This document shows, piece by piece, positions 6,408 to 9,022 of a stretch of DNA of 23,721 nucleotides. The position numbers were made by a program, and so were the translations under genes. Position 1 is the first letter of the stretch; each line of letters opens with the position of its first letter. This stretch comes from Escherichia coli (GTDB lineage Bacteria; Pseudomonadota; Gammaproteobacteria; Enterobacterales; Enterobacteriaceae): assembly GCF_003334815.1 (NCBI RefSeq), contig NZ_QOWO01000049.1; one strand, 5' to 3'. The notes under the pieces are model-generated. The model did no database searches, was not told the DNA's origin, and was given only the letters and a program-made list of their open reading frames with translations.

Positions 6408-7187
6408 TCAGTAGTCAGGTTTAAAATGGGTAAGAACGTTGACCATCTGGCGGTCCAGGTCATCGTGGCTCATAAATCCCCATGCAAGAGGCTGCCACTG
6501 GTGCGTTTTCGGATCGACCAGGAAGGTCGCGGGGAAATGTGTGGCGCGCATCTGCTCAGCCTGCCCGCTGTCCGGACGGCTCTGCGGCAGCTGGTCGCTG
6601 ATTTTACCGTCCACACTCACGGCCATAAGTGTAATGCCCCGGTCTTCGCAGAACGCGCGGATGACACCGGCCATCAGGTTGTCGACGGCATTATTCCCCC
6701 GGTAGAAGAAGAACAGACCATAGCGCTGTGCCACCTGACGGATGACCGCATTCTGAACCTTTCTCTCTTCGGTAAGACGCGCTTCCACAGAACCGTTGTA
6801 GTGACTACGTTTCACGTTGTAGTCGAGTTCCGGATATTTCAGGCGCGCCAGCTTTGATGTCTGGGTAAAATCTGTCGCCCGGTCAGTCCAGAAATTCTGG
6901 AGTATCATAAAACGGCGGAAGTTCTCCGCAGACGGATACAGAATGGCCGTATCCAGCGCTTCACGGGTCGCCTGCTGCAGGACCTTTTTCTGCTCAGATG
7001 GCGTCATGCTGGCCAGACGTTCCTGAAGGGTCGGCTCTGGCGCAGGCTCCGGTTGAATCTCTTCCGCATTCGGGTTGTACCACTGCCAGCCTTCTTCCCG
7101 GGCATAGTTGGGGACCAGTACATCGTCGGGAGCCGCATGCAGTGATGCAGTGGCAAGAAGAACAAGCACACCGGCGACAGCTCTCAT
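6408..7187 (-). CDS. traF: TraF, F-type pilus assembly protein (thioredoxin fold, no CxxC)
   Basis: 259 aa with signal peptide; GWQWYN, ILYP, YFRLQN, ELDYN, HYNG, FFYRG and KPDY-type motifs match remembered F TraF; start overlaps the traN stop as ATGA. Confidence 0.9.
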   Translation of the reverse strand: MRAVAGVLVLLATASLHAAPDDVLVPNYAREEGWQWYNPNAEEIQPEPAPEPTLQERLASMTPSEQKKVLQQATREALDTAILYPSAENFRRFMILQNFWTDRATDFTQTSKLARLKYPELDYNVKRSHYNGSVEARLTEERKVQNAVIRQVAQRYGLFFFYRGNNAVDNLMAGVIRAFCEDRGITLMAVSVDGKISDQLPQSRPDSGQAEQMRATHFPATFLVDPKTHQWQPLAWGFMSHDDLDRQMVNVLTHFKPDY

Positions 7188-9022
7188 GGCGCGTTCTCCT
7201 TCATCTTTTCAGCAATAATGTCCTGTGCTTTCTTCAGCAAGGCCTGGTCTTCCGGGATATCGCTGCCGGCATTAAGATCATCATAGAAATCGCTGAAATT
7301 CATCACACCAAAGTCCAGCTTCTGCAGTTCATCCACCGTGATGCCCCGACAGTCCGGAGATTTGCCACTGCCGAAACCAATGCCCAGCTGTCCACGGCGT
7401 CCCTGCTCCTGGACAATGCGTGCCAGTTTGGAATCAAATACGCAGTAACCGCGTTTCTTCTCCAGACATACCCCCAGCACTTTTTTGCTGCAGTATTCCC
7501 CTACATAGACCGTCAGTTTTTTCTCTTTAGCCTTACCCAGTGCCTTTTCATCACTGCTGCAACTGGACAGCCCGATATCCTGGCCCCAGCCAGAATCCTT
7601 ACAGCAATTGTTAAACCCGGCAGCAAACTTCTTGCAGGATTTGGCTTCGCCAGTGAATGCCCTGACATTCTCGCCGTTCAGTTCCGCCACATCCTCTCCG
7701 GCAGCAGCCACTGCCGCCAGCGCTGACACTGCCTGACCAAACATATTGCTGGTCCCTGTCTGCGCCTGGGCACAACTGCCGTCTTTGCAGAAGAACTCCC
7801 CGCCGCAAATCTGGCCGTTTCCCTCTTTTTTACGCTCACAGGAGTAGGTGACCTGCTGGCTGACACAAAAACCATCCACCGTATCGGCACACTGACTTCG
7901 TACAACCGTACAGGCAGGGTTCTTCATATACTCACCGCAGGTTCCCTCAGTTTCGGTCTGTGTCAGATATGTGTCCTGCCACTTCCAGCAGTCCTGGTGG
8001 ATGCTGTAGGTTTTTCCGTCAACAACGACGGTCCGGGTGCCTCCTGGCTCTACACACTGAGATCCGGTCATTGCACCTTCAGACTTGCTGAACGGGCAGC
8101 TTTCTGTCCAGACAACCTCAGGTACCCATTTTCTGGAAGGAACCTGAATCGTCAGCGTAATGGTGAAACGGTACTTCATATTTGAGCTATACCAGATGGA
8201 AGACACTGTAGGTTTGTTGCGTCTATTCGTTATGGAAAACGGCAATGACTGCCCATCTGTTATATTCAGCCCGGAACTCAGCGTGACGCTCCCCTCAGAA
8301 TCATCCATTGAAATTAAACCAAATGGCGTGGTCACTCTCATGAACCAGTGTTCGTTGCCGTAAGCAAGTTTCTTATTCCAGGAGTAAACCGCGCTGGCAG
8401 CGATCACTTTCCCTCCAGTGCTGACCTTAAATTCACCAGAAAAAGAATTGTTCTTTTCAGTGAACCGAATCGAGGAAGATTCAATCACTATCTGTTTGAT
8501 TTCTGTCGTATCCTCATAGTACCCACTGATGGTCGCTGTACGGGTACAGTACTGTTCAATTTTCGTGTCCCGCAGGCACTGGTGTGTGGTGATTTCCGTG
8601 AAGCCAGCAACCTGATCCACACAACCATCAAATCCACCACCGGTAATGGCCTCCGCCTTATCCTTCATGGCCAGCCCTTCTGAAATAAACGGCGCATCCA
8701 GCGACGGCTTGTTATCCGGCGGCGTATTGAGAATGGACTCCGTGATTATTTTACCCGCTTCAGATGTGTTCAGCGCTGCTGAACCCGGGGCGGTCATATC
8801 GACGCCAGGGGAGGTCACGCCACCGTAATACCCGCTTTCAGGAGGGGAGTTGGTATAACCCGGGATGACCTCCGCAGGATTAAACCCCTGAATAGCACTG
8901 GCCCCCTGTCCCTTATTCTGGCTACTCAGATTCATTCCCTGGTTAAACTGCTCATTTGCAACAAGCGGCTGTACCAGGCAGAAAGATGCCGCCAGTATCA
9001 GTAAAGGAAGGTATCGTTTCAT
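7184..9022 (-). CDS. traN: TraN, cysteine-rich outer-membrane mating pair stabilization protein
   Basis: 612 aa (F TraN about 602 aa), signal peptide, many Cys in the C-terminal third; canonical position between trbC and traF; ATGA overlap with the trbC stop. Confidence 0.9.
   Translation of the reverse strand: MKRYLPLLILAASFCLVQPLVANEQFNQGMNLSSQNKGQGASAIQGFNPAEVIPGYTNSPPESGYYGGVTSPGVDMTAPGSAALNTSEAGKIITESILNTPPDNKPSLDAPFISEGLAMKDKAEAITGGGFDGCVDQVAGFTEITTHQCLRDTKIEQYCTRTATISGYYEDTTEIKQIVIESSSIRFTEKNNSFSGEFKVSTGGKVIAASAVYSWNKKLAYGNEHWFMRVTTPFGLISMDDSEGSVTLSSGLNITDGQSLPFSITNRRNKPTVSSIWYSSNMKYRFTITLTIQVPSRKWVPEVVWTESCPFSKSEGAMTGSQCVEPGGTRTVVVDGKTYSIHQDCWKWQDTYLTQTETEGTCGEYMKNPACTVVRSQCADTVDGFCVSQQVTYSCERKKEGNGQICGGEFFCKDGSCAQAQTGTSNMFGQAVSALAAVAAAGEDVAELNGENVRAFTGEAKSCKKFAAGFNNCCKDSGWGQDIGLSSCSSDEKALGKAKEKKLTVYVGEYCSKKVLGVCLEKKRGYCVFDSKLARIVQEQGRRGQLGIGFGSGKSPDCRGITVDELQKLDFGVMNFSDFYDDLNAGSDIPEDQALLKKAQDIIAEKMKENAP

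Follow-up and report, generated by a model that had tools for sequence, protein, structure and literature searches.

The TraN protein of F-like plasmids stabilises mating pairs by contacting an outer-membrane protein of the recipient cell, which for F itself is OmpA. The tra locus studied here, carried on a 23,721-nucleotide stretch of Escherichia coli DNA (contig NZ_QOWO01000049.1; hereafter the window), raises the question of which recipient receptor its TraN uses. An earlier reading, made from the sequence alone, had noted that the central part of this TraN looked unlike that of F, and had proposed that this part determines receptor specificity and that the receptor may differ from OmpA.

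The traN gene and its product

The whole window is taken up by a tra operon extending from traM to traT, within which traN is an intact ORF encoding 612 amino acids that exactly fills the interval given in Table 1. The start of traN overlaps the trbC stop, and the traN stop overlaps the traF start, in both junction sequences as ATGA; such overlaps are typical of translationally coupled tra genes. The gene has 100% nucleotide identity to the traN annotated on NZ_OZ042071.1 (product WP_000833258.1), an E. coli plasmid that is typed as IncFIA/IncFIC, MOBF and MPF_F, and the RefSeq annotation of identical plasmids gives a full tra operon with the same MPF_F/MOBF typing. The product matched the Pfam family F_T4SS_TraN (PF06986) over residues 318-562 (E 4.3e-77) and scored above the curated cutoffs of both NCBIfam TIGR02750 (TraN_Ftype; 483 bits against 422) and NF009016 (649.6 bits against 648). 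Its sequence identifies the product as TraN, the F-type protein of mating-pair stabilisation, from a plasmid lineage of the IncFIA/FIC type that is associated with ETEC.

The N-terminus of the protein has the typical form MKR-hydrophobic-LVA and, by inspection, aligns with the signal peptide of F TraN. Of its 23 cysteines, one (C15, not conserved) lies within this predicted signal peptide, while all 22 cysteines of the mature protein fall in columns that are invariant across eight aligned TraNs, none of them between residues 164 and 300. The sequence-only reading had described a conserved, F-like, Cys-rich C-terminal third; the conservation is borne out, but the extent is not, as the Cys-rich part comprises the C-terminal half together with C134, C149 and C159.

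Table 1. Position of traN, its neighbours and the predicted parts of its product in the window
Feature	Position	Strand	Basis or remarks
traN CDS	7184..9022	-	612 codons plus TGA stop at 7184-7186, ATG start; ORF listing
trbC	9019..9633	-	upstream of traN; NCBIfam TIGR02742, RefSeq annotation of identical plasmids, junction sequence
traF	6408..7187	-	downstream of traN; NCBIfam TIGR02739, annotation, junction sequence
Predicted Sec signal peptide, aa 1-22	8957..9022	-	read from the translation and the alignment with the F signal peptide; cleavage site inferred between MKRYLPLLILAASFCLVQPLVA and NEQF
N-terminal base and stalk, aa 23-163	8534..8956	-	conserved C134, C149 and C159; alignment and AlphaFold2
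Tip (sensor) domain, delta2 type, aa 164-300	8123..8533	-	all-beta and Cys-free; alignment and AlphaFold2
C-terminal base domain, aa 301-612	7187..8122	-	19 conserved Cys; Pfam match at window 7337-8071, invariant Cys columns
Approximate recombination cassette, gene nt ~500-880, aa ~167-293	8143..8523	-	same-base relatives unalignable inside

An AlphaFold2 model of the full-length protein, built from a 99-sequence alignment, had a mean pLDDT of 82. Residues ~150-310 were mostly predicted with a pLDDT above 90 and almost entirely as strand, with one short helix at 274-279; the loops at residues 221-230 and 261-280 had low pLDDT. The N-terminal part consisted of helices followed by a long strand starting at residue 135. 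A separate model of the tip plus stalk behaved in the same way as the full-length one. These predictions are consistent with residues ~150-310 forming a stalk and a distal beta-sandwich.

In a Foldseek search of AFDB50 with the tip-plus-stalk model, the identical E. coli tip ranked first, followed by a TraN 61% identical over the query (TMq 0.78, rmsd 3.1). Many TraNs of about 30% identity also reached TMq values of 0.5-0.78, and the TM-score thus does not separate tip classes; published work likewise describes a conserved tip scaffold, with the differences located in exposed loops. The full-length model retrieved TraNs only, at low TM-scores (0.27-0.51) that are uninformative for isotype and that we attribute to a presumably elongated, flexible architecture. 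No solved TraN structure was found: a PDB chain sequence search with the whole TraN gave no match at E<=0.001, and the full-length Foldseek search of the PDB returned an unrelated 118-aa Ig-like chain (8x7n_A) plus noise. Since TM-scores do not discriminate between classes, the isotype was assigned below from sequence, together with the superposition of MV1 and MV3 reported in the literature.

Isotype of the central domain

IncF TraNs have been sorted into sequence variants, 'minor variant 3' (MV3) being represented by NZ_CP023348.1, and MV1 and MV3 have been grouped as TraN-delta, the OmpF class, on the superposition of their predicted tips (Low et al. 2022, PMC9246713). MV3 was later named TraN-delta2, and WP_001398575.1, from the ETEC plasmid pCss165, was listed as delta (NAR 2023 review); this accession is the TraN product annotated in NZ_CP023348.1. 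We aligned the window TraN with seven published references (F, NR1/R100, pSLT, pKpQIL, MV1, MV2 and MV3), using NR1 (NC_009133.1) as the alpha1 reference; in the R100 record NC_002134.1, traN is split into two ORFs.

The window TraN and that of NZ_CP023348.1, from ETEC-2265, are identical at 609 of 612 residues, and the two genes share 99.6% nucleotide identity over their full length in a DNA search. The three differences are I9M, which lies in the signal peptide, E224D, which is the single and conservative change in the tip, and T306K; the window protein accordingly carries its own accession, WP_000833258.1. Both genes lie in the same trbC-traN-traF context, and both plasmids type as IncFIA/FIC. 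This near-identity to a variant classed as TraN-delta/delta2 and paired with OmpF supports the earlier suggestion that the receptor may differ from OmpA.

Comparison with F TraN (TraN-gamma) gave a very different picture along the length of the protein. The two are members of one family with similar length and the same 22 conserved cysteines, and they share 44% identity over residues 1-163 (45% for mature residues 24-163) and 61.5% over residues 301-612. Over residues 164-300, however, identity fell to 13.5% with 13 gap columns, which places F in another receptor class. The central divergence from F, which the sequence-only reading had described, was thereby confirmed, and the alignment to typed TraN variants that it had proposed returned no close central match to F.

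The window tip was 99.3% identical to that of MV3 and 55.5% identical to that of MV1/delta1, the latter without a gap over all 137 residues and including a fully conserved 15-residue block, WFMRVTTPFGLISMD. Identity to the other tips was much lower (24% for R100, 22% for pSLT and 21% for pKpQIL), and the alpha, beta and gamma tips together ranged from 13-25% identity with 9-44 gap columns. With 22-24% identity to the alpha tips and 16-21% to the beta tips, the window tip belongs to neither of those classes. In addition, the pKpQIL and MV2 tips contain 44 extra aligned columns and five more cysteines, and the R100 and pSLT tips contain two more cysteines, the alpha tip Cys pair; the window tip has neither the beta-type hairpin insertion nor the extra alpha and beta tip cysteines.

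The base tells a different story from the tip. MV3 aside, the base of the window TraN shares 37-45% (N-terminal) and 60-62% (C-terminal) identity with all other reference isotypes, whereas the remaining references share 57-93% and 71-90%, respectively, among themselves; within this set it is the most divergent base. This holds for TraN-delta1 of pOZ172 from Citrobacter freundii (MV1; NZ_CP016763.1) as well. Its tip, which also lacks cysteines, aligns without gaps, but the two bases share just 41% (N-terminal) and 61% (C-terminal) identity. Its plasmid backbone also differs, being IncFIB/FII and carrying trbE and traQ, and most of its hosts are Enterobacter, Citrobacter or Klebsiella.

On every sequence criterion, the window TraN is TraN-delta2. 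The variant had already been typed, with OmpF as its assigned receptor, in the literature of 2022-2023, and the classification as such adds nothing new.

The DNA of the delta2 tip was found in 58 of 72,556 PLSDB plasmids (Escherichia 50, Shigella 5, Enterobacter 2 and Klebsiella 1); it was also present in 44 of 5,426 complete E. coli genomes, where it was always plasmid-borne. By tblastn, a tip of at least 95% identity was encoded by 53 plasmids and one of 60-90% identity by 8, and a further 351 plasmids encoded tips below 60%. Most of the sampled matches in this last band were MV1-like at 57.5% identity, and came mainly from Enterobacter, Citrobacter and Klebsiella.

Exchange of the tip on one base lineage

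About 200 plasmids contain the DNA of the N-terminal base of the window traN, among them 60 from Escherichia, 54 from Salmonella and 48 from Citrobacter. A sample of TraNs with this base, at 86-95% N-terminal and 89-100% C-terminal identity to the window protein, revealed different tips. With the delta2 tip of the window and MV3 as reference, a pig ETEC plasmid (NZ_CP122829.1) encodes a tip 98% identical to that of the window and CP099215.1 a diverged delta tip at 77%. R100/alpha1-like tips are found in STEC (CP101980.1; 83% identity to the R100 tip), S. Bareilly (NZ_CP039472.1; 81%) and C. freundii (NZ_CP054280.1; 65%), pSLT/alpha2-like tips in S. salamae (CP074602.1; 79% identity to the pSLT tip) and S. 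Onderstepoort (NZ_CP022035.1; 81%), and a distantly F/gamma-like tip, 38% identical to that of F, in NZ_CP077697.1.

The transitions between base and tip are abrupt. Between the window gene and its same-base relatives from Salmonella and E. coli, nucleotide identity is 80-94% on the flanks of the cassette and 37-41% inside it. When identity was followed in 45-nt windows, the first to fall below 50% spanned gene nt 485-537 and the last spanned 829-878, or 885-929 for the gamma-like tip, with the exception of CP101980.1, in which the first such window falls in the signal-peptide region. The breakpoints therefore lie near gene nt ~490-535 and ~870-930. The S. salamae gene illustrates the other side of this relationship, its tip being 71-81% identical to that of pSLT at the nucleotide level and its base only ~40-64%.

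In its pattern of occurrence the tip resembles a cassette that is exchanged in nature, and it is reassorted between deeply diverged tra backbones. These patterns also lend independent support to the view that residues ~167-293 constitute the specificity module. With delta, alpha1-like, alpha2-like and gamma-like tips on one base lineage, receptor specificity is reassorted by recombination at fixed breakpoints. In the reviews covered, tips are described as 'evolved', with no mention of such recombination, and we make no claim of novelty. A comparable arrangement is known from phage receptor-binding proteins, with which Frankel et al. (2023) have compared TraN. They likewise combine a conserved anchor with a variable, porin-targeting distal sensor that is exchanged between lineages, although these proteins are not homologous to TraN and serve in virion adsorption rather than in adhesion between donor and recipient.

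We also considered positive selection as the source of tip divergence within the lineage. The comparison of the window with CP099215.1 lent this no support, with a dN/dS of 0.16 in the tip and similar dS values in the tip (0.85) and the C-terminal base (0.77).

Receptor of the delta2 tip

Published work with chimaeras has traced receptor specificity to the variable central tip of TraN, and swapping this domain swaps receptor dependence (PMC9246713), as the sequence-only reading had supposed for the central region. Transfer by chimaeras with the MV1 tip is lost in E. coli ΔompF recipients, but not in ΔompA or ΔompC recipients (Low et al. 2022, PMC9246713). OmpW dependence was shown for each of the alpha1 and alpha2 tips, and beta1 and beta2 were grouped on OmpK36 (PMC9246713). 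In published assays the delta1 and delta2 tips had the same recipient profile, with efficient transfer into E. coli, C. rodentium and K. variicola and not into K. pneumoniae or K. oxytoca.

Given its published structural similarity to the delta1 tip and this shared range of recipient species, the delta2 tip probably uses OmpF, and not OmpA, as its receptor. In support of this assignment, the 55% identity of the delta1 and delta2 tips falls between the values for other tip pairs already assigned to one receptor, 48% for alpha1 and alpha2 (OmpW) and 67% for beta1 and beta2 (OmpK36). Furthermore, the delta2 tip is found almost exclusively in Escherichia and Shigella hosts, which fits an E. coli-type receptor. 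As a counterpoint, 45% of the tip residues differ between delta1 and delta2.

In the mechanism that we favour, export by the Sec pathway and disulphide formation among the 22 cysteines would yield a base, made up of the N- and C-terminal parts, in the outer membrane of the donor, with residues ~164-300 forming the distal beta-sandwich tip. Following retraction of the pilus, the tip would bind an outer-membrane protein of the recipient, most probably OmpF, and this contact would stabilise the mating pair and raise the efficiency of transfer. Anchoring of TraN by its base in the donor membrane and contact of the tip with a recipient protein are steps taken from the literature.

Three other readings have to be weighed against OmpF. 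The first is that the protein is delta2 by sequence while its tip binds a different or additional outer-membrane protein, such as OmpC, PhoE or some other porin. The only tip tested on ΔompF recipients to which it can be compared is that of delta1 (MV1), at 55% identity, and no direct assay of a delta2 tip on such recipients was found in the papers covered. Moreover, single-residue differences can change the pairing of TraN with its receptor, subtle differences shift specificity in other classes, and the beta isotype uses two porins. Set against this are the equal recipient-species profiles of delta1 and delta2, the gapless alignment with its conserved 15-residue block, and the alpha pair, which retains OmpW at a lower tip identity; we therefore regard a different or additional receptor as unlikely. 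If there were one, it would represent a further TraN-receptor pairing specific to ETEC and Shigella plasmids.

The second reading holds that the central divergence reflects neutral drift or decay, and that this TraN serves only in assembly of the pilus and type IV secretion system (T4SS). A separate role of the base domain in piliation is known for some plasmids, and in the comparison with CP099215.1 the tip has a higher dN/dS than the base (0.16 against 0.05). A value of 0.16 nonetheless still denotes purifying selection, the reading frame is uninterrupted, and some 50 plasmids share the tip with 98-100% conservation; in the AlphaFold2 model it is well folded. Discrete tip types also recur on different bases with sharp breakpoints, and mutants of other TraNs that lack the tip lose about 350-fold in transfer, which together make drift very improbable.

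The last reading, that the window TraN uses OmpA like F in spite of its divergent centre, could appeal to the origin of the protein in E. coli plasmids, to a C-terminal base 62% identical to that of F, and to the much longer IncH TraN class, which also uses OmpA and indicates that OmpA use arose on different scaffolds, but it is scarcely credible when the tip shares 13% identity with that of F over an alignment with 13 gap columns, specificity maps to the tip and not to the base, and the related delta1 tip transfers normally into ΔompA.

The natural tip swaps on the window backbone would offer a ready source of isogenic-like material for work on recipient switching by plasmids. More generally, the type of TraN tip predicts which species an IncF-like plasmid enters efficiently. 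For the plasmids carrying the delta2 tip, many of which are ETEC virulence plasmids, this typing predicts OmpF-dependent transfer and a spread centred on E. coli, Shigella and Citrobacter.

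Gene content of the tra operon

The minus-strand tra operon in the window is more compact than that of F. An NCBIfam profile search of the operon left two ORFs without a match (see table), the second of which, between traU and trbC, is given as 122 aa in the RefSeq annotation. For a near-identical plasmid, RefSeq annotates no traQ, trbE, trbA, trbJ, trbF, traP, trbD, traJ or traY, and the traM-traA interval holds small hypothetical ORFs only.

Features of the window and of the R100 record
Feature	Position	Strand	Basis
191-aa ORF, traS (entry exclusion) position in the traG/traT gap	window 956-1531	-	no NCBIfam match
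145-aa ORF between traU and trbC	window 9633-10067	-	no NCBIfam match
TraN, as modelled and compared	window 7187-9022	-	AF2 model; reference isotypes
TraN tip cassette	window 8143-8523	-	DNA and protein comparison with plasmid loci L012, L013, L014, L018-L022
Conserved 15-residue block (aa 226-240)	window 8303-8347	-	tip comparison
R100 traN, unannotated, split into ORFs of 300 and 311 aa	L010 (NC_002134.1) 14987-16837		

Predicted structure and conserved features of the TraN tip

The sole significant PDB fold match of the AF2 model of the window TraN was 8x7n_A (TMt 0.77, E 1e-6), a 118-residue chain from a 'cell-cell adhesion nanobody/antigen pair' that presumably aligns to a beta-sandwich part of TraN. 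Several of the AFDB matches named TraN carry insect or fluke labels (Callosobruchus, Aphis, Clonorchis), entries that probably reflect bacterial contamination in those assemblies.

Within the tip, the variable central domain of TraN, we found that the block WFMRVTTPFGLISMD is invariant across delta2, diverged-delta (CP099215.1) and delta1 tips, the remainder of which is 55-77% identical. WFMRVTTPFGLISMD could be a structural core or a receptor contact. In the model, pLDDT is lower in the loops near it (aa 221-230 and 261-280).

Tip exchange and the mosaic tra region

Among the seven reference isotypes, the window TraN base, comprising the conserved N- and C-terminal parts, is an outlier, with 37-45% identity in the N-terminal part and 60-62% in the C-terminal part. 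Since identity to MV1 (delta1) is higher in the tip (55%) than in the N-terminal base (41%), tip and base have discordant histories. The split traN of the R100 record probably stems from a frameshift, or from an error in the sequencing, of this older entry; in the near-identical NR1 record traN is intact, encoding 616 aa.

A gene 100% identical to the window traN is present in two PLSDB records, whereas the full 23.7 kb matches the best plasmids at 96-97% identity at most, with 91-95% coverage split into two to three pieces, so that parts of the tra region outside traN are mosaic relative to sequenced relatives.

Finally, plasmids with a window-type TraN base (86-100% aa identity) carry delta2, diverged-delta, R100/alpha1-like, pSLT/alpha2-like or distantly F/gamma-like tips, and in comparisons of these same-base plasmids sharp DNA breakpoints flank the tip at gene nt ~490-535 and ~870-930. 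Together, the common base, the varied tips and the sharp breakpoints indicate that natural recombination swaps TraN tip cassettes across deeply diverged tra lineages.
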